Assembly: GCA_963745235.1 (NCBI GenBank)
Contig: CAVUXE010000005.1
Location: 1 to 13,967, forward strand
Direction of reading: 5' to 3'
Source of the DNA: an uncultured Spirochaetota bacterium
GTDB taxonomy: Bacteria; Spirochaetota; Spirochaetia; SZUA-6; Fen-1364
Length of the DNA stretch: 13,967 nt
In this document: positions 3,293-13,967 of the stretch, piece after piece
Numbering within the stretch: position 1 is the stretch's first letter
How the letters are laid out: every line of letters begins with the position of its first letter
Position numbers and translations under genes: made by a program
Notes under the pieces: model-generated
The model's input: only the letters and a program-made list of their open reading frames with translations
What the model was told of the DNA's origin: nothing
Database searches by the model: none

Positions 3293-3670
3293 CTATAGGT
3301 CTCTAAACAATAGCTTCTTGGTAAGAGTATGGCGCACAGGACACGTTTCTGCTATCTCAAGTAGCTTCCTCCGCTGCTCATCATCAAGTTGTCCTGAAAG
3401 CTCTATCGAGTAATTGAAGACAGCTTCCGTTGAGGAGTTCCTGTCCAGAGACACCTTCGTGGATGCCTTCTCAAGTTCGACGCCGTAGTTTGTCGCATAC
3501 ATCCGAACGTGCATGTTCATACAGGTTGCCAGGGCCGCTTCCAGTAGCTCGTGGGGACGAAAACCCTGGTTCCCTCCTCCCTTGTCGGGAGTGGTATCAG
3601 CGTTGGCAGCATGGTTCCCGTTTGAAAAGACTGTCAGATACGAACGAGACTCGCTTAAGGCAGTAATCAT
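3293..3670 (-). CDS. OsmC-like family protein
   Basis: 'ADTTPDKGGGNQGFRPHELLEAALATC' and 'AETCPVRHTL' give the two conserved Cys of the OsmC/Ohr/YhfA family. RBS AGAGGAG favours ATG 3670 over 3694. Confidence 0.9.
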   Translation of the reverse strand: MITALSESRSYLTVFSNGNHAANADTTPDKGGGNQGFRPHELLEAALATCMNMHVRMYATNYGVELEKASTKVSLDRNSSTEAVFNYSIELSGQLDDEQRRKLLEIAETCPVRHTLTKKLLFRDL

Positions 3671-3829
3671 GGAGTCTTCTCCTCTGGCGTTCAATCATAA
3701 GACCGCCATCATTACAGGCGGTTGTGCTTATGAACAAGACTCCTTATAGCTCAAAATGCTGTAAGTCGTCCTGCATCGTATATATCGCAGCGGCATCATC
3801 GTGTATACTCAATCAGAGGATTGATTATC

Positions 3830-4624
3830 ATGTATCGCCTCTTCGTAGATGACACAGGCACCAAGGAAAAAGAGGATGCAGCTACAGACCTGTTTGCATA
3901 CTCAGGGATAATTCTCGACTCGCAGAAGGAGCAGGGAGTCTGTGCGTCTGTGGCAGCACTCAAGGGACGTTATTTCAAGACCGATTCGGTGGAGCTTAAA
4001 TCTCGTTGGTTTAGGATGCCAGAACTTAGGAAGGAAAAGTATCTATCGCCCTACGGACTTAGCGATGAAGCTTTCAAGCAGTTCACTTCGGAACTGTTTG
4101 CTCTAATCAGCACTTCACCCATCCGCTGTCTTGGTTCCGTTGTCAGCAAGGCTGAAATGGACAAGACATACCACAAAATAGTGTTCGACCCAAGTCCTGT
4201 TGCATATGAACTTCTCTTACAACGAGTCGCTAACTTTCTCACGCAGTATTCTATCTACCAATTGGGTATCGTCGTTGACGATATGAGCGGCAAGAACGTG
4301 AAGGGTTCTGACTGGAAAGAGCTTTTGGTGCGGCAACATGGTCAACTAAAGCTTGGCAAATCTCCTTTGTATAGAACATGGAAGTCTCGCCCAGGAATGG
4401 ACTACTCAAGGATGCCCAAAGAAATCGTATTTGAGGACTCTTCGAAAAGTACTCCTTTGCAACTTGCCGATCTTTGTGCCTACAACGTGATGCGACAAGC
4501 AAGGGATTTCCATACGTTTGACGGTGCGGAAATGTATCCTGGCTACAAATGGATTTATCCCATCATGCATAAAGACCCCAAGACGAAAAAGGTTGGCGGA
4601 TTCGGTGCCGTGCTATTCCCATGA
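3830..4624 (+). CDS. DUF3800-like (RNase H-like fold) protein
   Basis: N-terminal 'YRLFVDDTG', mid 'IVVDD' and C-terminal 'DSSKSTPLQLADLCAY' are hallmark DUF3800 motifs. AGAGGA at 3815-3820 precedes ATG 3830. Confidence 0.85.
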   Translation: MYRLFVDDTGTKEKEDAATDLFAYSGIILDSQKEQGVCASVAALKGRYFKTDSVELKSRWFRMPELRKEKYLSPYGLSDEAFKQFTSELFALISTSPIRCLGSVVSKAEMDKTYHKIVFDPSPVAYELLLQRVANFLTQYSIYQLGIVVDDMSGKNVKGSDWKELLVRQHGQLKLGKSPLYRTWKSRPGMDYSRMPKEIVFEDSSKSTPLQLADLCAYNVMRQARDFHTFDGAEMYPGYKWIYPIMHKDPKTKKVGGFGAVLFP

Positions 4625-4692
4625 CATGGAAAGACATGTCGACCAGTCAGAAGTCTACTTGCAAATGATTGTCTGCAATTCTTGAGGAAAGG

Positions 4693-5019
4693 TCAGTGCC
4701 TCAAGAATCTCCTTAAGTCAGGTGGATACTTCTTGATTTCAATAAAGCGCTCCCTTGACACATAGTAGATTGTCAGGTAGCCCATACTGGCGAGTTGCTT
4801 GAGTACCTTTCTTTGTTTGTAATCGTTTATTCGCGTCTCGCTCAGTACGTCCTGAATTGTCAATCGAAATCTTTTGTTGCCACTCTGTTTGCTCTTCTTC
4901 AAGAGATAGCCAAAAAATAGTGCCTTTTCGAGTCCCCATTTTCTTACAAGAGAATCAGGAACAGGAAAGCTGTGGGCGGGGTCCCTAAGCGAAGCAATCA
5001 CACTCTCTTCGTCTGTCAT
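4693..5019 (-). CDS. winged-helix DNA-binding protein, similar to phage/plasmid replication-initiator N-terminal wHTH
   Basis: 'LVRKWGLEKALFFGYL...TIQDVLSETRINDYKQRKVLKQLASMGYL' fits a wHTH pattern. The start overlaps the upstream stop (ATGA, 5016-5019), implying translational coupling. Confidence 0.7.
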   Translation of the reverse strand: MTDEESVIASLRDPAHSFPVPDSLVRKWGLEKALFFGYLLKKSKQSGNKRFRLTIQDVLSETRINDYKQRKVLKQLASMGYLTIYYVSRERFIEIKKYPPDLRRFLRH

Positions 5020-6632
5020 ACTTTCCCCCCTTGAAGTTCCATTATTCTATCAGTCTCGTAATAGATGCAAGTTCCAGGCGCATAGGTGACTCCTGGCTTC
5101 AATTCTATCGCTTTCAGAAGACCTGTCTGCTCCAAAAAGGATTTGATTTCAGGAAACGATTTGCTCTTATGGTGCTTTCCCAGGAACTTGATAAGGGAGA
5201 GCGGAAGCGGTAGTCCATCACGCTCGTTCATGAATACTATGGGAAATACCATCGGCAGCTTGAGCTTAGGATCGTTGGTCCAACGAAGTCTCCATTCCTC
5301 AGTCCTTGCTTCCTCATAGCGGATTAGAAACAGCACAAACTGCCCGATCCTTTGGCAATACCTCTCCTGGATAAGATTCTCGTTCTTGAATCCACCCTTG
5401 CTTACGTTGCGTCGATTTGATAGGAACGGTATGAGGCGATCAGATATTTTCTGCCGCAACACATGATCGAGAGTTTCAGATAGCTCTGTGGTTTTGGAAT
5501 ATCGTTCAACCCTGTCAAGAACGTCTTCATAGTTCATGTCGCCAAAGACTTTCCTGCTGTCACTGCGTTCGAAATGATTCTGACCCCATTCGTAGAATGA
5601 CTTGTACTCTGTCTTCCCACGCGCCCCATGGTCGTGTGCCTCACAGATTTCTATAAAGTCCTGCAACGGAAGGCCGTATCGTATGCAGTAGCTGAGGATT
5701 GAGGTCTGTACCTCTTTCCTTTCACCAGCCCCATAGTCAAGCTTGGGATTGTCCAGCAGCTTGTGCTTTATGTTGGTCTGCGCTAATCGCTTCTTTCGTG
5801 GACCGAACTTCTTCTTATACTGCTTGTGATCAAGGTCCATTTCAAGCGAAGGATCGAGATAAGAGAATCTGTCATAGTTCTTCCACAGCGTCAGAAGCTC
5901 ATCGAATGCCATGGTTCTGATCAAGGATGGCTTCTTAATCGAATAGATTCCGTAGACTGAATACTTTCGACTCATTGGCAATCGGATGTGGCCTGTGGAG
6001 CGGACAGCTTCGATTACAAAACCTTTTCTTTTGAACTGGTCCTCAAGGTTCTGCAAAACGGGGTCGGTTGCTGCTCTATCAAAGTGGAAGTACAGGTGGT
6101 AGCCCTTTGACCATGGGTTGTATTCGACGTATTTGACTTCTCCGAACCTTGCGACAAGCTCATGAACGATAACCTTCGTGTCCTTGTTTGATCGCCCATC
6201 AATGTCGATGCAGACGATCCGCTGTGCTTTGACTTGAAGACTGCCCCATTTGATGTATTCGTATCTCCTGTTGAGACTGAAGACCCGTTCGTGAGTGAAG
6301 TGGGAGTTCCTGATGAATGCACGAGCCGTGAAGAGGCTGTAGTTGTCACCGATCTGTTTGTTGGCGTAGACAATCTGATCTGGTCGATTCTTCTCAAGTT
6401 GTGCCCCAGGATCGACACGCTCAAAGTAGAACTCCCTCTCAAGGTAGAATCCGAGAGCTTCAAAGAGAGCGTCCAGCCTTTTGTAGTCTATGTAGGAGTC
6501 TTTGCGTTGACTGCGGAAGCGGACTCGGCCTTGTGAGTCAATCTTGGAGATACCTTTCCCAGGACGACCTTTGGAAGAACCATCCTTTTGAATCGTGGAA
6601 ACCTTCCTGACATCGGATTCAACGGAAGCCAT
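5016..6632 (-). CDS. archaeo-eukaryotic primase superfamily (Prim-Pol/Rep-like) protein
   Basis: AEP-type motifs: hhhDhD 'IVCIDIDG', 'SKGYHLYFHF', 'HIRLP'. Then a PriCT-like helical stretch (GAGERKEVQTSILSYCIRYGL) and a possible C-terminal wHTH. GAGGAA RBS upstream. Confidence 0.7.
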   Translation of the reverse strand: MASVESDVRKVSTIQKDGSSKGRPGKGISKIDSQGRVRFRSQRKDSYIDYKRLDALFEALGFYLEREFYFERVDPGAQLEKNRPDQIVYANKQIGDNYSLFTARAFIRNSHFTHERVFSLNRRYEYIKWGSLQVKAQRIVCIDIDGRSNKDTKVIVHELVARFGEVKYVEYNPWSKGYHLYFHFDRAATDPVLQNLEDQFKRKGFVIEAVRSTGHIRLPMSRKYSVYGIYSIKKPSLIRTMAFDELLTLWKNYDRFSYLDPSLEMDLDHKQYKKKFGPRKKRLAQTNIKHKLLDNPKLDYGAGERKEVQTSILSYCIRYGLPLQDFIEICEAHDHGARGKTEYKSFYEWGQNHFERSDSRKVFGDMNYEDVLDRVERYSKTTELSETLDHVLRQKISDRLIPFLSNRRNVSKGGFKNENLIQERYCQRIGQFVLFLIRYEEARTEEWRLRWTNDPKLKLPMVFPIVFMNERDGLPLPLSLIKFLGKHHKSKSFPEIKSFLEQTGLLKAIELKPGVTYAPGTCIYYETDRIMELQGGKV

Positions 6633-6718: not shown

Positions 6719-6765
6719 AGATCAGACACTATATCCTCATATATTCATGTATCCCCACTTTTTGA
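6719..6765 (+). repeat. 47-bp direct repeat, copy 1
   Basis: AGATCAGACACTATATCCTCATATATTCATGTATCCCCACTTTTTGA; 44/47 identical to 6963-7009. Confidence 0.9.
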
Positions 6766-6962
6766 ACAAGGTGAAGGGTCGCTATGTGTCAGCCTGACAG
6801 AGGATCGGCCCTTGTCAGAGGGACCATTCAATCCGTCAATTGCCCCCCCATCACACTGTCCCTGTGACCCTCTTTCTCGGTTCCCCATGGTCTACCATAG
6901 CTTCAGGAACCAAGGCATCCACACCCAACCTCTCTCTATTACAGGGATTCCCTCAAACCCTG

Positions 6963-7009
6963 AGATCAGAGACTATATCCTCATATATCTATGTATCCCC
7001 ACTTTTTGA
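6963..7009 (+). repeat. 47-bp direct repeat, copy 2
   Basis: AGATCAGAGACTATATCCTCATATATCTATGTATCCCCACTTTTTGA; 244 bp downstream of copy 1. Confidence 0.9.
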
Positions 7010-7087: not shown

Positions 7088-8387
7088 CTATTCGTTAAGT
7101 ATGGTGGTCGACACATCCGCGTGTCCGAGCAACTCCTGAATGGTCCGTATGTCGTACCCGCGTTCAATCAAGTGCGTCGCGAAGCTGTGCCGCAGCGTGT
7201 GAATGCTTGCGTGTTTCGGGATGCCCGCCGCGCGCAACGCATCCCGAAACGCCTTCTGGAGTGTCGTCGGATACACATGAAAGCGCCGAACCGTCCGCGA
7301 CATCGGATCCATAGACAGATTCCCTGACGGGAAGACCCAATACCAGCCCCACTCGCGACTTGCATTCGAGAACTTCCTGCCCAATGCGCCGGGGATGGCT
7401 ACTCCGTCCACGCCCTTCTTTTGATCCTGGTTGTAGAGGGCGTTGACTTTCAACAGGTGATGACGAATCTCCTCGGTGATCTTTTCCGGCAGGGACCGTC
7501 TCCCGGTCCTTGTTCCCCTTTCCCGCTCTGATAGTCAGGCAGTTTCTTTCGAAGTCGATGTCTTTCACGCGCAGGGTGAGACATTCTTCCAATCTCAGAC
7601 CGCCCCCATAGATCAGGCGGACCATAAGAAGATAGGTCCCCTGCATGCCAGAGAAAACTCTTGAAATCTCCTGCCTGGTGAGCACGACAGGGAGCCTCTT
7701 GGGGACCCGAGACGGCACAACCGTGGACAGGCCGTTGATCTCTATTCCCAGGATGTTGCGGTAGAGGAAAAGGATGGCATTGAACGCGAGCCTCTGGGTT
7801 GCTGCCGCGACACTCTTTTCCACGGCAAGGAAGGAAAGAAAGCTCTTCAAGTCCTGCTCCGAAAGATCGTTGCATGTCTTCGATCCAAGAAAGGACCTGA
7901 ACTGCCGCATCCAGGAAAGGTACGCCTTCTCCGTCCTGAGCGAGAGATGCTTCAGCCGCATGAGCTGCACCAACTCCTGTTCGAGGCGGCTCCAACTCGA
8001 AAACAGCCGTCTGCGCACTTGCGTGGCCCTCGCGTTCTTTGCGTCACCCCGAGGCTGGTCACCGGCCGCGGGCCCCGGGCGGAAACTGTGAGGGTCGAAT
8101 CGCTGCGCCTCGCAGCCAGCGGTCGCGCCGTACCGGATCTCGCGAGCCTTCGGATCGCCGCACCGCGCCCTGTAGTAGGAGTACAGTTGCAGAGCTCTCT
8201 GTGCCTGCTGGACCTGCCATTTCGGGTAGCTTCCAGCGAGCCAACGCAGGAAGTAGGCCAAGGACTGATTGTCGACCGTCTCCCGCTTGGTAATACTTCG
8301 GTATGTACTTGCCCAAAGGTGGTACACCTGGCGAAGAGGTTGCTCAACCCTGTTGTGCTCGGCCAGAAAGTCTGCAAACGACTGCAT
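7088..8387 (-). pseudogene. intI: integron integrase (tyrosine recombinase), frameshifted and C-terminally truncated
   Basis: 'MRLKHLSLRTEKAYLSW', 'LIYGGGLRLEE', 'GKGNKDR', the IntI-specific insertion '[26 protein letters not shown]' and '[15 protein letters not shown]'. An extra base at GGG 7492-7494 breaks [16 protein letters not shown]. Homology ends at 'VSTT' (7101); the expected MIYTH with the catalytic Tyr is absent. Confidence 0.95.
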
Positions 8388-8523
8388 AACTCACCCACCT
8401 TCTGTATTAGGCACCTGCTCCATAACAAGACGTGGGAGATTGCTGTGCTGCTTGCAGGGGGAGCAGAAACCGCTCTGGAGCCCCCGCCGCCTAACACGCC
8501 CGACCAGGGCCTTATAGACAACT

Positions 8524-8543
8524 CGCTAATATGGTTGTTACAT
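8524..8543 (+). other. attI: attI recombination site (core G/TTACAT at 8537-8543)
   Basis: CGCTAATATGGTTGTTACAT lies 150 bp upstream of the divergent intI start. Homology with cassettes 3 and 4 begins exactly at this GTT, and no attC stem precedes it. Confidence 0.85.
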
Positions 8544-9012
8544 CTCCCGAGGTCTCATCGGGGACAAAAGCGTTCGTCCCTTTTTGAAAATTGCTCTGGG
8601 AAGCGTTGGCGTCCTGAAATCCAATGGCGCGGGCTTTCTCTTTGGGGGTTACTAGTGTTTGCTGGCGCTTCAGTGGTCCGCCGAAACGGGTGGCTGCCGG
8701 AAGGGGCGGTTTGTAGATTTCATTTCGGTGAGAACCCGCACCTGGTAGGAGAAAGTGCCGCAAGGAGAGAGATCGTTGGGATGGGCGGAAAGAGGGCTGG
8801 CGGGATGATAATGGCGGGGCAAGGGTTTGGTAAGGAAGAGTTGCCAAAGGCACAAACAGCAGCCATCGGCAGGAGTCGGCGAGCAGGTGCAGTGCAAGAA
8901 GTGAGCTGCGGATATTCTGAGGCTACGCCGACCGGGGAGATGAAGGGACGGTTGATGCGGTGAAGGAGGCGGTGAGGAATCGGCCCCGCCACCGTGTCGG
9001 GGGAGATGTAAC
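8537..9012. ncRNA. candidate structured ncRNA, type A body copy 1
   Basis: No conserved reading frame across the 3 copies. Several helices are conserved, with compensatory or wobble-compatible changes (see findings). Expression is not shown. Confidence 0.5.
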
Positions 9013-9167
9013 AAGTCGTTGAAGCCGACCCCTTAACGACCGGTCTGAAAGTGAGGCACAGGAATCGTAAACGCCGCCGCGGTCTGATCCGGCGGCTTGT
9101 AGTGAGGAATGGGAAACGTAAAAGCCGTTATGGCTGGGATGATGCGGCGGGGCGGCTTAACTCTATG
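8538..9167 (+). mobile_element. integron cassette 1, ORF-less (type A, copy 1)
   Basis: Bounded by the attI GTT and attC1. GTTACATCTCCC (8537-8548) is the exact reverse complement of GGGAGATGTAAC (9001-9012). Confidence 0.9.
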
Positions 9168-9173
9168 TTACAC
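9006..9173 (+). other. attC: attC site 1 (168 bp, internally duplicated loop)
   Basis: R'' ATGTAAC, 5-nt spacer, L'' GTTGAAGC, CGACCCC ... GGGGCG, L' GCTTAAC, TCTAT, R' GTTACAC. Same architecture as the classic aadA-type attC. Confidence 0.92.
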
Positions 9174-9838
9174 GCACGCAAATTGTTCTGAGAAAGCCCC
9201 GTGGTTGGAATATTCTTTGCTGGCTTGAGATTTTGAAAATTGGGCGGAGAACGGGCCGGCAGGGATTTCCTATCAAAGAAGGCTGGTGGTGATTGCTTCA
9301 AGGCAGTTCGCCGCCGAAGGCTTGGCTGATCGAAGTGGTACTTGATGACGCAGACAAGCAGGGGCGATAGCTGAGTTACACTACGCACCGGCCCTTCGGA
9401 CCAGCACAGGTTCGCTGGAAGCAGGTGGCGATTGCTTCAAGGCAACTGGCTTGCGAAGGTTTGGTTGATCGTAACGGTATCTGAAGAGGCAACAGAGTGT
9501 GGAGATAGATGGGTTCCATACGGTCTGGTCCAAAGGGCCGGCAGGGATCGATTGCAACAAGGGAGTCCGCCGCAGAGGGTTGGCTGATTGTAGAGGTGCT
9601 TGAAGGCGCAGACAAGCAGAGGAGATAGCTGGGCTCCACCGCGAACCGGCCCGTGAAGAGAAGATTCGTAGTGCTGGCGACCTTTCCACACCATGATGCA
9701 GGAACAAGGCACCCAGCACTAGGCGTCCGTGTAACAAATCGTTGAAGCCGACCCCTTAACGGCTGCCTTATACTGAGGCACAGGTTTGGTAAGAGCCGCC
9801 GCCGCTGGGTTGATGCGGCGGGGCGGCTTAACTCTATG
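9168..9838 (+). mobile_element. integron cassette 2, ORF-less (type B, three tandem units)
   Basis: GTTACACGCACGC (9167-9179) pairs 12/13 with GCGTCCGTGTAAC (9723-9735). No credible ORF. Confidence 0.9.
9253..9652. repeat. three tandem degenerate units (9253-9394, 9398-9531, 9535-9652), candidate structured RNA array
   Basis: Shared ~103-nt core starting GATTGC at 9291, 9430 and 9550. Each unit is closed by a 7-bp inverted repeat, with 3-nt linkers between units. Confidence 0.85.
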
Positions 9839-9844
9839 TTACAT
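9729..9844 (+). other. attC: attC site 2 (116 bp)
   Basis: GTGTAAC AAATC GTTGAAGCCGACCCC ... GGGGCGGCTTAAC TCTAT GTTACAT. Confidence 0.93.
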
Positions 9845-10419
9845 CTCCCGAGGTCTCATCCGGGACAAAAGCGTTCGTCCCCTTTTGAAGATTTCTCTGG
9901 GAAGCGTTGGCGTCCTGAAATCGAACGGTGCGGGCTTTCTCTTTGGGGGCTACTACGGTTTGGCTGGCGCTTCAGTGGTACGTGCCGAAAAGGATGGCTG
10001 CCGGAAGGAGCGGTTTGTAGATTTCATTCGCTGAGAACCCGCACCTGGTAGGAGAAAGTGCTGCGAGGAGAGATATCGTTGGGATGGGCGGGAAGAGGGC
10101 TGGCGGGATGATGATGGCGGGGCAAGGGTTCGGTAAGGAAGAGTTGCCAAAGGCACAAACAGCAGCCATCGGCAGGGTCGGCGAGCAGGTGCAGTGCAGA
10201 AGTGAGTTGGGGATATTCCAGAGACTACGCCGACAGAGGAGATGAAGGGACGGTTGATGCGGTGAAGGAGGCAGTGAGGAATCGGCCCCGCCACCGTGTC
10301 GGGGGAGATGTAACAAGTCGTTGAAGCCGTCCCCTTAGCTTACGCGCGGAAAGTGGGGCCTACGTTCCGTAGGAAAGGTCGCCGCTAGGCGCAGGTCGGC
10401 GGGGCGGCTTAACTCTGTG
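9839..10419 (+). mobile_element. integron cassette 3, ORF-less (type A, copy 2)
   Basis: Body 9838-10314 is about 90% identical by eye to 8537-9012 and has the same 12-bp terminal inverted match. Confidence 0.9.
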
Positions 10420-10425
10420 TTACAT
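10308..10425 (+). other. attC: attC site 3 (118 bp, divergent loop)
   Basis: ATGTAAC AAGTC GTTGAAGCCGTCCCC ... GGGGCGGCTTAAC TCTGT GTTACAT. Confidence 0.93.
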
Positions 10426-10995
10426 CTCCCGACTCTCATCGGGGACAAAAGCGTTTGTCCCTTTTTGAAGATTGCTCTGGGAAGCGTTGGCGTCCTGAAA
10501 TCCAATGGCGCGGGCTTCTCATTGGGGGTTGCTAGTGTTTGCTGGCGCTTCAGTAGTCCGCCGAAACGGGTGGCTGCTGTAAGGGGCGGTTTGCAGATTT
10601 CATTTCACTGAGAACCCGCGCCTGGTAGGAGAAAGTGTTGAAAGGAGAGAGATCGTTGGGATGGGTGGGGAAGAGGGCTGGCGGGATGATAATGGCGGGG
10701 CATGGGTTTGGTAAGGAAGAGTTGCCAAAGGCACAAACAACAGCCATCGGCAGGAGTCGACGAGCAGGTGCAGTGCAGAAGTGACCTGCGGATATTCTAA
10801 GGCTACGCCGACCGGGGAGATGAAGGGACGGTTGATGCGGTGAAGGAGGCGGTGAGGAATCGGCCCCGCCACCGTGTCGGGGGAGATGTAACAAGTCGTT
10901 GAAGCCGACCCCTTAACGACCGGCTGAAAGTGAGGCACAGGAATCGTAAACGCCGCCGCGGCTGATCTGATGCGGCGGGGCGGCTTAACTCTGTG
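10420..10995 (+). mobile_element. integron cassette 4, ORF-less (type A, copy 3)
   Basis: Body 10419-10892 is roughly 94% identical by eye to copy 1. Confidence 0.9.
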
Positions 10996-11001
10996 TTATG
11001 T
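10886..11001 (+). other. attC: attC site 4 (116 bp)
   Basis: ATGTAAC AAGTC GTTGAAGCCGACCCC ... GGGGCGGCTTAAC TCTGT GTTATGT. Confidence 0.93.
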
Positions 11002-11030
11002 GGCGCAGTCTGGGCTATCATTCAATGGCA

Positions 11031-11504
11031 ATGGTTCGAAGTTCAGTGTTGAAACTATCAATCATCATCGCAATACTCATCCTAATTTCATGCGCGTCGA
11101 AACCAAGCCCCAATTTAGCTGTAAGCGTGGCCATGGCTTCCGCGATACGGGCCGTCGAAAAGTCTGAACAGGCACAATTCAGCCCCGAACAGGAATATTT
11201 CTTAGGCAGAGCCGTCAGCGCTGGAATTCTGTCGAGATATAGAGTTTATGCAAATGACGCTGCAACTCAATACATAAGTCTCATCGGCAAGGCCTTGGCT
11301 ATCCACTGTGCGCTACCGGAGACATTTACCGGATATCATTTCCTCATTCTTGATTCAGCAGAATTGAACGGCTTTGCCGCTCCAGGGGGCTTCGTCTTTA
11401 TAACTCGTGGTTTGCTACTTTCCATCAAAAGCGAGGATATGATAGCTGGAGCCCTTGCATATTCAATAAGTCATGTCGTTATGCATTCAGGTGTTTCAAC
11501 AATC
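11031..11504 (+). pseudogene. cassette 5: M48-family peptidase-like lipoprotein, interrupted by IS66
   Basis: Signal peptide with lipobox-like 'ILILISC'; 'FSPEQEYFLGR' and 'YHFLILDSAELNGFAAPGGFVFITRGLL...SEDMIAGALA' are M48/BepA-like. Start may be 10998, 11025 or 11031. Residues after 11504 are read from IS DNA. Confidence 0.85.
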
Positions 11505-11565
11505 GTATCTATTCAGCTAAAATACCGGACAAATGTTAGGGTATTCCGGAAATTGTGAAAGCGTG

Positions 11566-13167
11566 GTAACTGTTCAGCTGGTCTGAAGGCAGTCAGTCAG
11601 GGTTAGGTCTTTTTCAAACGCATTCATGAGAGCGTCAATAACCGATAGGCCCTGCTTTCTGATCGTTGAGATATAACTTCGTATCCGACAGAATGAGAGC
11701 GCTCCCCCATTGCTTCGGAATGCCCCGGATACTTTCTGCTGGACCCTCATCATTCTTATATCTCGTTCTGCCAAATTATTGTCGAAGTCAACTCTGAAAT
11801 CGGTCATGTATCGCAGGGTCTCCTCGCGTAGTCGTTCAAGTCTTTCCAACAGATTGCGTGCTTTGCTGCGCTTGATCCGGCCCCGTTTTCCGGGGCTGTC
11901 TGCCCGATGAGGCGATGGGTTGGCTTTCATACCACTTGCGATGATCGCTTTGTAGCGGCTCTCATATTTGCGAATGTCGCAGAGGGGTAGTTTCTTCTTC
12001 CCTGTGCGTTTTGCCTGCTCCACAGTTTGCTTGCTCTCCAGAAGAAGGCCGATCATTTGTTGCGCCCACACTTGGCCACCCGGTTCATAGACCGCCGTGA
12101 GTTCTCGAATGTGATGTGCGTTGCACAGCGAATGCGAGCACCTATATTTCATGTAGGGTTTCCAATTATCATGAACCGCGTTGCCTTTCAGCCGCGGCAG
12201 AATCCCAATCTGATCTGTGGCAGCGCTACCACGCCTCTGATGAGGATAGTAGTAGGTGAACTCCTGAGTGCCCGCCCCGTGCAGCCAGTGCAGTTTGCCG
12301 TTGATGCTCAAGCCGGTCTCATCAAAGTGCACCACTTTCGCCTGAATCAGTTTCTCCTTGATCTGCTCCACAACACCCTGGACTCGTTGCGCACACCGCC
12401 GATCGATACTGGCCAGCGTGCCAACGCTGAGGGGAATGGCGAACAGATCAGCGAAGGCTTGGGCGGCTCGATCGTAGGAAAGAAATCCATAGTTTTTTAG
12501 ATACACTGCAAATGCCTTCAGCCGTGGACCGTACTGTGCTTTGTGACTTACCCCGAGTGGGAACACCGCTACCGAAAGCTCGTGGCAGTGGGGGCAGCGC
12601 TTGATCTGGGCACGGTGTTCGGTCACATCCACGGCGATGGGCGGAATATCGAAGACTTGTCGTGACTCATACCCTCGCGGCTTTTGCTGTTGCAGCGACT
12701 TGCCGCATCCCTGGCACACTTTGACTTCATGAATCATCACCTGCTGCGGGTGTTCGACCATGGACAACGTTGTTCCCTCGTGCCCTTGCTGACCGCCAGG
12801 TTTTTTCCCGCTGGATTCTCGTCTCGTATGAATCCGTCGATGCAAGCCATCACTGGAGGGAGGCTTATCGCTGTTATGACTGTCCTTGCTGTTCTTCTCC
12901 TCCAGCGCTTTGATTCTTTGCGTTAACCTCTTGATCTGGTCTACCACCTGGTCGATGGTGTTGTCGTGCTGATCCTGTAGATACTCGATGAGAGAAACGA
13001 TAGCCTCAGGGCCTGCCTTGTATGCATTCAGAATTTGCTCGCGAGGGATTCGCGGCAGATGATAGTCCTTTTCCTCTCCCATGCAACTGAGCGTGACGGA
13101 CTTTTTGAGTTTCCGGAATACTTAACATCCGTCCGGTATTTCACCTCCCGGGGAGCTGAACAGTTAC
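11566..13167 (-). mobile_element. IS66-family element B (single-ORF, ISBst12-like organisation), complete, 1602 bp
   Basis: Perfect 14-bp TIRs GTAACTGTTCAGCT (11566-11579 and 13154-13167); 8-bp target duplication AAAGCGTG at 11558-11565 and 13168-13175. Confidence 0.96.
11574..13082 (-). CDS. IS66 family transposase
   Basis: 'NSKDSHNSDKPPSSD', 'KKPGGQQGHEG', CxxC...CxxC zinc finger, 'VVHFDETG', 'CNAHHIREL', 'FDNNLAERDIR' and 'KVSGAFRS' motifs; intact 502 aa. Confidence 0.96.
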   Translation of the reverse strand: MGEEKDYHLPRIPREQILNAYKAGPEAIVSLIEYLQDQHDNTIDQVVDQIKRLTQRIKALEEKNSKDSHNSDKPPSSDGLHRRIHTRRESSGKKPGGQQGHEGTTLSMVEHPQQVMIHEVKVCQGCGKSLQQQKPRGYESRQVFDIPPIAVDVTEHRAQIKRCPHCHELSVAVFPLGVSHKAQYGPRLKAFAVYLKNYGFLSYDRAAQAFADLFAIPLSVGTLASIDRRCAQRVQGVVEQIKEKLIQAKVVHFDETGLSINGKLHWLHGAGTQEFTYYYPHQRRGSAATDQIGILPRLKGNAVHDNWKPYMKYRCSHSLCNAHHIRELTAVYEPGGQVWAQQMIGLLLESKQTVEQAKRTGKKKLPLCDIRKYESRYKAIIASGMKANPSPHRADSPGKRGRIKRSKARNLLERLERLREETLRYMTDFRVDFDNNLAERDIRMMRVQQKVSGAFRSNGGALSFCRIRSYISTIRKQGLSVIDALMNAFEKDLTLTDCLQTS

Positions 13168-13189
13168 AAAGCGTGAAATAATCTCTCTC

Positions 13190-13967
13190 ATGGGAGGGGG
13201 CCATAAGAAATTCTCGCGCATTGGGCGCTAGCAAATTCTCAACGCTTATCGGGCTGGGCCTGATGCCATCGTCTCGTTGATCGACTATCTGCAAGAGACG
13301 CTTTTGGGAATCATCGAAGAACACGAAGCACGGATCGAAGAGCTTGAAGCGAAGCTCAACAAGGACAGCCACAACAGCGACAAGCCGCCTTCCACAGATG
13401 GACCGAAGCGAAGGTTCACCGCAAAGAATCGGGAGCGCAGTGACAAGAAACCTGGCGGTCAGGAGGGACACGAGGGCACGACGCTGCGGATGGTAAGCGA
13501 TCCAGCCCAGGTGGCAGTTCATGAGGTCAAACGCTGTGGGCGTTGCGGCAGATCGTTGAAGGATGTGAAGCCACGAGGCTACCTCCCACGGCAGGTTTTC
13601 GATATCCCTCGCATTACTGTGGCGGTCACCGAGCATCGAGCGCAGATCAAACGCTGCCCTCACTGTGGAGAGCTTTCCCGGGGAGAGTTCCCTGAGGGGG
13701 TGACTCACACGACCCAGTATGGAACGCGCCTGAGAGCCTTTGCGGTGTACCTGAAGAACTATGGATTTCTCTCCTATCAACGGACCGCCGAAGCGTTGTC
13801 AGACTTGTTCGCCATTGCTGTGAGCGCGGGGACCCTCGCCAGCACAGATGGTCGCTGTGCCCAACGTCTGGAAAGGGTGGTGGAACAGATCAGAGAGAAG
13901 CTTGTTCGGGCGCCGGTGGTGCATTTCGATGAAACAGGACTGAGCATCAACGGGAAGTTACACTGGC
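13190..13967 (+). pseudogene. IS66 family transposase of element A, premature TAG at codon 14, 3'-partial
   Basis: MGGGHKKFSRIGR*QILNAYRAGPDAIVSLIDYLQ...NKDSHNSDKPPSTD...VVHFDETGLSINGKLHW. TAG at 13229-13231 aligns with Glu in the element B paralog. Open to the window end. Confidence 0.9.

Follow-up and report, generated by a model that had tools for sequence, protein, structure and literature searches.

Two families of gene-less cassettes at the attI end of a chromosomal integron in an uncultured soil Spirochaetia bacterium

Cassettes without a gene are a recognised part of chromosomal integrons, and the few dozen that have been tested, nearly all of them from Vibrio, proved to be promoters. 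Of 30 gene-less cassettes from four Vibrio superintegrons, 25 showed promoter activity in the sense orientation and some were also active in the antisense orientation (Blanco et al, NAR 2024, PMC11014356); the authors call in silico prediction useless for these promoters. A study of oral Treponema describes cassettes lacking an open reading frame (ORF) that act as promoters, among them the first-position cassette TMB4, active on both strands; its authors suggest that the integrase gene, intI, could be expressed more strongly when the first cassette contains an antisense promoter, and ORF-less cassettes were rare in first position there (1/42 and 1/5) (Tansirichaiya et al, Sci Rep 2019, PMC6557892). 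Here we analyse four consecutive gene-less cassettes that follow the attI region of an integron in a 13,967-bp stretch of DNA, called the window below, which is one entire contig (C5) of a metagenome-assembled genome (MAG) from an uncultured Spirochaetia bacterium. Positions close to attI are usually regarded as the expressed and recently acquired slots of an array.

The cassettes fall into two families, A and B, which carry no protein-coding gene, are present in several copies in two integrons of this genome and were detected in a single uncultured Spirochaetia species of soil and peat and nowhere else. In each cassette a non-coding body of ~470–560 bp is followed by an attC site of its own, of ~110 nt. 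They are new families of a known kind of cassette, a kind that is poorly understood. The source MAG (G000) comprises 5.85 Mb in 104 contigs at 61% GC, with a completeness of 85.7% and a contamination of 5.9%, and the first 400 residues of its RpoB are 92–97% identical to those of uncultured Spirochaetota and Spirochaetia MAGs.

Cassette boundaries, attC sites and coding capacity

The attI region (8388–8537, plus strand) ends at the G of GTTACAT at 8537, which is the first crossover point, and further G/TT crossover points at 9167, 9838, 10419 and 10995 delimit four cassettes on the same strand. Cassette 1 (8538–9167, 630 bp) belongs to family A and consists of a body at ~8538–9002 and a composite attC site of 162 nt at ~9003–9167. 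Family B is represented by cassette 2 (9168–9838, 671 bp), with its body at ~9168–9725 and its attC site at ~9726–9838. The two cassettes that follow are again of family A: cassette 3 (9839–10419, 581 bp; attC at ~10305–10419) is of a subtype, beta, that is nearest to the A copy on contig C9 of the same genome, and cassette 4 (10420–10995, 576 bp; attC at ~10883–10995) is of the alpha subtype, nearest to cassette 1. An attI followed by four cassettes of these lengths had been proposed from the letters of the window alone (the sequence-only reading), and the crossover boundaries reproduce the same numbers.

All four cassette ends matched a profile derived from 22 attC sites of the genome (E 1e-12 to 6e-29), which bears out the earlier attC calls; genome-wide, 42 places matched. 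The 36 nt at the 3' end of attC recur four times, at spacings of 671, 581 and 576, and the bottom strands of the three sites that were folded formed R-box/L-box hairpins (z-scores -4.27, -4.31 and -2.71). Imperfect palindromes with a bottom-strand hairpin are present at cassette-length intervals, an integron-type tyrosine recombinase gene lies beside the array, and the cassettes are exchanged as discrete units at G/TT, as the variants described in the next section demonstrate; the four are genuine integron cassettes. The expectation that each would carry a complete attC whose R'' matches its own R' held in that all four match the profile, and failed for cassette 1, whose attC (9003–9167) is not a simple complete site. 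It corresponds to profile positions 1–90 followed by positions 34–110, and looks as if two attC sites had been fused within their central parts.

The start of the A cassettes (TTGTTACATCTCCC) is complementary at 14 of 14 positions to the sequence at their own R'', and the start of cassette 2 pairs with its own R'' over 21 nt at 81% complementarity. By eye rather than by a count, a match of ~13 nt between R'' and R' was also seen in one or more coding cassettes on C9. The complementarity, which the sequence-only reading took as conserved base-pairing, is the ordinary R''/R' pairing of attC and is uninformative on RNA in the body.

The sequence-only reading also held that the four cassettes contain no credible protein, and here our analysis agrees. 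Nine sites with indels of 1–2 nt separate the three A copies of the window. ORFs of 112–114 aa are present on the minus strand in all three frames, which have 1–3 stops each; the purine-rich plus strand accounts for this openness. When translated, the 114-aa ORFs of that strand share from 53 of 126 to 75 of 117 aligned positions despite the 91–95% identity of the DNA, and they switch frame between copies. None of six ORFs matched Pfam, and no relative of the spurious 114-aa ORF was found in 5.8 billion proteins. On the plus strand, a short ORF starts at ATG 8782, and as read from the alignment its first 31 codons are kept in three of the four A copies; it is frameshifted in cassette 4 and has a different C-terminus in every copy. 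Our own reading of the alignment gave ~2 synonymous against ~5 non-synonymous changes in this ORF, with no synonymous excess.

Families, copies and distribution

The three cassettes that had been taken for copies of one body do align, over ~470 bp. Together with the A copy on C9 (241366–241842), their bodies are 91.1–95.3% identical, with 71 of 481 alignment columns variable, and the mean column identity of the three window bodies is 90%. Two subtypes can be distinguished, each with its own attC: cassettes 1 and 4 form one, and cassette 3 and the C9 copy the other. Similarity is lowest between the neighbours, cassettes 3 and 4 (91.1%), and the two subtypes differ in their attC, so that the pile-up of A does not stem from a recent tandem duplication; the adjacent A cassettes would rather be separate arrivals. 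Cassette 2 proved to be the three-unit array that had been described, with tandem units of ~120–140 nt on the plus strand at 9253–9394, 9398–9531 and 9535–9652 (142, 134 and 118 nt) that are ~75–80% alike. The units are closed by 7-bp stems, GGGCCGG/CCGGCCC in units 1 and 3 and GGACCAG/CTGGTCC in unit 2, which differs from the other two by two compensatory changes. A and B are not alike: their local alignment score of 25 compares with 20.6 +/- 2.5 for shuffled sequences, and 14 of 200 shuffles scored as high.

Family A has four copies in the genome, the three of the window and the one on C9, and family B has three, which are 98–99% identical and are located in the window, in first position of the C9 integron and at a later point of the same array. 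Contig C9 (251 kb) thus holds a second integron with one A, two B and an intact integrase, and on both platforms the first cassette is gene-less. The C9 integrase has 450 aa and scores 372 bits on TIGR02249 (cut-off 265). In the window, intI (7088–8387, minus strand) is broken. Residues 1–298 of its ORF at 7164–8387 (minus strand) share 99% identity with the C9 copy, after which a frameshift follows, and the C-terminal catalytic part is found in another frame at 7088–7453; owing to the frameshift the match to TIGR02249 is partial, with 183 bits over residues 138–298 only. Homology between C5 and C9 (99.7% identity) is confined to 7100–8542, that is, to intI and attI, and the outer flanks differ. 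At its lower end, the homology of intI to the intact copy stops at 7100, a few codons short of the end of the reading frame. The broken copy is a second platform in decay or else reflects a variant of the assembly or of the strain. As a side observation on the C9 array, a methyltransferase-like cassette with an LCM domain (9853–10718 of locus L005) is split into three overlapping ORFs and is probably frameshifted.

Parts of the window were present in 17 public runs from seven studies of soil, peat, freshwater sediment and a bioreactor, and contigs of four of these runs, among them the DNA run X1 and the peat metatranscriptome X16, were compared with it. One contig of X1 joins position 8535 to 9166 and skips exactly 630 bases (8536–9165), so that cassette 1 is missing and the same attI adjoins a B cassette, as it does on C9. 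Contigs of X3, X6 and X1 run past cassette 3 (after 10422) into other cassettes or sequences, which shows that the array varies between samples. The greater part of the A bodies (8582–8854, 9856–9946 and 10493–10856) had no covering contig in the four runs, from which nothing was inferred. In a separate observation, the last ~110 nt of the A body and its attC were joined, at 10200, to a different upstream sequence in both the RNA run X16 and the DNA run X1; this 3' module may be common to another cassette type that is absent from this genome.

A search for homologs by BLASTN and nhmmer, as the sequence-only reading had envisaged, collected none from outside the species. Among 92 genomes of the order, including G000, BLAST gave only two short chance-level matches to A (23 and 35 nt) and none to B. 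With nhmmer at E values up to 10, neither family was detected in 80 integron loci of IntI relatives (960,024 bases), and a comparison of A, B and the B unit with ~290 kb of arrays from four related genomes gave only two B-unit hits (E 0.036 and 0.045). Plasmid and phage collections contained no blastn match to A or B. The B-unit pattern had a single match among genome contigs, within a coding gene of an unrelated contig; a 20-mer of A had a single match among metagenome contigs, also within a coding gene, and a 21-mer in genome contigs and a 22-mer in viral contigs had none.

Related attC sites are present in 19 of 25 genomes of the bacterial family, including G000, and gene-less cassettes of other, unrelated families occur among the relatives. 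Genome G052 carries two gene-less families (~392 and ~425 bp) in several copies each, at 80–99% identity, with at least seven such cassettes in succession; G065 has a gene-less pair of 562 and 563 bp and G068 one of 357 and 358 bp. Short gene-less cassettes in multiple copies are a general habit of this bacterial family, and runs of such cassettes are not peculiar to this genome. These soil Spirochaetia integrons carry lineage-specific, multi-copy gene-less families that are able to fill the attI-proximal positions. The G052 run (locus L132, ~3660–6170; ~768.7–771.2 kb of its contig C1) consists of cassettes of 440, 439, 392, 425, 419 and 391 bp and a double one of 818 bp, and its AT-rich families would permit a proper covariation or promoter study.

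Transcription in cis and rival explanations

The bodies of A and B are GC-rich (55–58%) and have an unusual composition. The A bodies have a GC skew of +0.31 and the B bodies one of +0.20 to +0.22 (+0.20 to +0.32 for the two together), compared with -0.05 to +0.11 for the other cassettes of the genome and a maximum of 0.19 in 157 cassettes of relatives. The exception, with a skew of 0.26, is an 809-bp cassette at 2688–3496 of contig C7, which has a GC content of 44% and only a 102-aa ORF in the sense direction and may represent a third gene-less family. No other cassette of the genome is as short (576–671 bp for A and B against 809–3161 bp).

Our tentative preference, held at somewhat below even confidence, is that A and B are gene-less cassettes propagated by the integrase IntI whose action, if they have one, is in cis and on array transcription. 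IntI would excise a cassette as a circle and re-insert it at attI, and would also duplicate cassettes; such cycles would explain the diverged copies stacked at attI and the occurrence of A and B in the second integron. Any effect on the host would most likely be exerted in cis, as experiments have demonstrated for gene-less cassettes from Vibrio and from oral Treponema, and two kinds of candidate element can be named. One is a terminator-like hairpin at the 5' end of A (8560–8585, plus strand), GGGGAC-N10-GTCCCT followed by a T-run, which was recognised in the alignments; its stem is kept in all four A copies, its 10-nt loop lies beyond the limits of the scan, which did not call it, and hairpin and T-run together look like a weak terminator. 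The other comprises antisense sigma-70-like sites that point towards attI and intI: TTACCA-17-TATCAT in A (8805–8833, minus strand; recurring at 10686–10714), which scores 9/12 in two of the four A copies and 8/12 in the C9 copy, and TTGTCT-17-TACAAT in unit 3 of B (9587–9615, minus strand), present in all three B copies. Canonical TTGACA/-10 promoters can be read upstream of toxin-antitoxin cassettes in the C9 array, and the organism therefore seems to use promoters of the TTGACA type. If the cassettes modulate transcription of the array or of the integrase, they would be part of the self-regulation of integrons.

Several results weigh against this preference. The antisense site of A is missing in cassette 3, and the sense strands of the A and B copies contain no sigma-70-like site of at least 9/12. 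The antisense sites themselves are ordinary, at four in 2.8 kb against 1.1 +/- 1.0 in shuffled sequences, with two of the four being copies of one site. In the gene-less run of G052, the same kind of scan found eight sites against 7.9 in shuffles, and no analogy was gained. Since prediction in silico fails for such promoters according to the Vibrio authors, our promoter scan is uninformative; it neither supports nor refutes an action in cis. An effect on intI is moot for the window copy, since that gene is broken, and a plain promoter role leaves the GC skew unexplained. Finally, the order A-B-A-A of the MAG contig was confirmed by none of the four runs compared, in which no contig of specific sequence crossed the junctions.

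The strong excess of G over C on the Pc-sense strand would be in keeping with A and B being functional non-coding RNA genes (a decoy, sponge, antitoxin or defence RNA) that travel as cassettes and are transcribed from Pc, an explanation we consider unlikely. It could draw on the 7-bp stem that closes each B unit, with its two compensatory changes in unit 2, and on clustered G-runs in A that contain a G-quadruplex motif (8778–8825, plus strand; equivalents at ~10081–10128 and ~10658–10706). This motif is kept in all four A copies, with a G4Hunter maximum of 1.48–1.88 and 40–57 windows above 1.2 per copy, the genome background being 1.2%. AGGAG is mildly over-represented in A, with 3–5 occurrences per copy against 1.1–1.6 in shuffles; for cassettes 1, 3 and 4 and the C9 copy, as many occurrences as observed were attained in 15, 5, 5 and 44 of 300 shuffles, respectively. 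The peat metatranscriptome contributes two contigs, one of 163 nt on B (9415–9577) and one of 208 nt on the 3' part of A (10200–10307), and none on attI or on the fifth cassette within the stretch compared; RNA libraries can, however, contain DNA. The sequence-only reading had named the joint lack of homologs and of a transcript as speaking against it, and this applies in part: the homologs are within-species copies and near-identical environmental DNA, and the two short contigs hint at a transcript. Against RNA genes stand the structure tests. The Rfam comparison proposed earlier retrieved no family at the gathering threshold (best sR36 with 19.8 bits, threshold 55, and g2 with 19.6 bits, threshold 70), no Rfam motif matched anywhere in the window, and ARAGORN found no tRNA or tmRNA gene. 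Folding z-scores of whole bodies were weak, -1.51 (plus strand) and -1.41 (minus strand) for A and -1.35 and -2.32 for B, against -2.7 to -4.3 for attC; the B units gave -1.78, -1.56 and +0.30 on the plus strand and the 3' module of A -0.93. For A, three of 142 predicted pairs were compensatory, which 35 of 500 column shuffles equalled, and the RNAalifold covariation term was about zero, with four sequences and hence low power. For the B unit, where three sequences give equally low power, five of 32 pairs were compensatory, ~12 were broken in at least one unit and the term was +0.46. A sponge for CsrA/RsmA was considered and rejected: GGA occurs 13–16 times in A against 15.2–17.0 in shuffles and 10 times in B against 15.4, A-N-GGA equals the expectation from dinucleotide shuffles, and no array of short GGA-loop hairpins is predicted in A; a csrA gene is present in the genome. 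Targets in trans were likewise rejected, as complementarity to the rest of the genome is at chance length (longest exact match 15–18 nt, E 0.04–2.5). The structured-RNA idea is unsupported rather than refuted, and what stands of the proposed family of functional non-coding cassettes is that they are bona fide, non-coding and recurrent families at the attI end. A more specific version, in which A would be a trans-acting G-rich RNA of ~470 nt with a G-quadruplex core and Shine-Dalgarno-like AGGAG sites and B a three-domain, stem-closed RNA, both read from Pc and serving for example as a sponge for a protein, ribosomes or C-rich RNA, we regard as quite improbable. If RNA genes they are, the gene-less families of the sister genomes would make up a larger reservoir, as yet unexplored, of RNA genes that soil spirochaetes carry on cassettes.

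The same background-level structure tests would also fit cassettes that are purely selfish or neutral, without any host function, short and readily excised and re-inserted by IntI so that they accumulate, most conspicuously at attI; if selfish, they would parasitise the integrase. We hold this alternative, which the sequence-only reading had also offered, to be possible, if on the unlikely side. The body has diverged (6.5% and 4.8%) roughly as much as the variable part of attC (10.4% and 1.9%; Fisher p 0.057 and 0.37), so that extra constraint on the body is not indicated. Short length, multiple copies, the unrelated multi-copy gene-less families of relatives and the lack of a homolog beyond the species also fit such an origin. 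Yet the variable columns of A are unevenly spread (chi-square p 0.036) and almost absent from the last ~80 nt, and the extreme G-rich bias of one strand needs a cause. In two runs the A 3' end follows other upstream DNA, which may point to a module in reuse, and copies that are 91–95% identical have persisted long enough to diverge without decay. Decayed protein-coding cassettes, or an assembly artefact of repeated cassettes in the MAG, seem very improbable. In their favour are the 31 codons kept from ATG 8782, a short, repeat-rich contig with insertion sequence (IS) copies at its flanks, and the A-B-A-A junctions left unspanned by specific sequence in the runs compared. This ORF, however, lacks a constant reading frame, a constant end and a synonymous excess, and no protein homolog exists among the proteins searched; a GC skew of 0.3 was seen in none of the coding cassettes examined. 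The copies moreover differ by 5–9% and are thus distinct sequences rather than a collapsed repeat, and both A and B were also assembled on the 251-kb contig C9.

Neighbouring sequences and comparison with described systems

Downstream of the four cassettes, the fifth (region 10996–13170) opens with an M48-peptidase-like ORF at 10998–11558, which is interrupted by an IS66-family element at ~11560–13170 with its transposase gene at 11574–13082 (minus strand). At least six more copies of this element, at ~99% identity, are located on other contigs, and a second, distinct IS66-like gene begins at 13277. On the other side, just beyond intI, a 47-nt direct repeat (94% identity) occupies 6719–6765 and 6963–7009, and a DUF3800 gene (3821–4624) lies upstream of the integron; the repeat region as a whole spans 6719–7009.

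An RNA gene carried by an integron would have a precedent in sRNA-Xcc1 of Xanthomonas, which Chen and colleagues reportedly described in 2011 as an integron-encoded, trans-acting small RNA. For A and B, by comparison, a discrete transcript, a target and a conserved structure are all hypothetical, and no Rfam family matched. CsrB and RsmZ are RNAs that act as protein sponges through GGA motifs in hairpin loops. A resembles them in its purine-rich sense strand, in its many GGA-containing motifs and in the presence of csrA in the genome, and differs in that its GGA and A-N-GGA counts are those of shuffled sequence and that no array of GGA-loop hairpins is predicted.

The gene-less cassettes of Vibrionaceae are closer in kind. 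Like A and B, they belong to a sedentary chromosomal integron, are bounded by attC and contain no ORF above ~70 aa that holds up; they are of the same size class, the size-matched control fragments used there measuring 450–650 bp, and some Vibrio cassettes have repeated regions (PMC11014356). A and B differ from them in being GC-rich with G in excess over C, in the lack of a sigma-70-like match in the sense direction, in their position at the attI end and in their diverged multiple copies; promoter activity was measured in Vibrio, and the sites reported here are predicted.

The oral Treponema integrons belong to the same phylum, Spirochaetota, and also contain ORF-less cassettes, including one in first position; the antisense sites of A and B would suggest the arrangement proposed for it, an antisense promoter of the first cassette acting on intI. 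The integron of T. denticola is a ‘reverse’ one, in which intI runs in the same direction as the cassettes, whereas intI is divergent here; a gene-less first cassette, rare among the Treponema arrays described there, occurs on both platforms of the present genome. The comparison with Treponema is one of descriptions. Overall, A and B are a well-documented example rather than a new kind of system, and the two G-rich families are convenient test objects, their odd G-rich composition and their pile-up at attI being the features that merit experiment.

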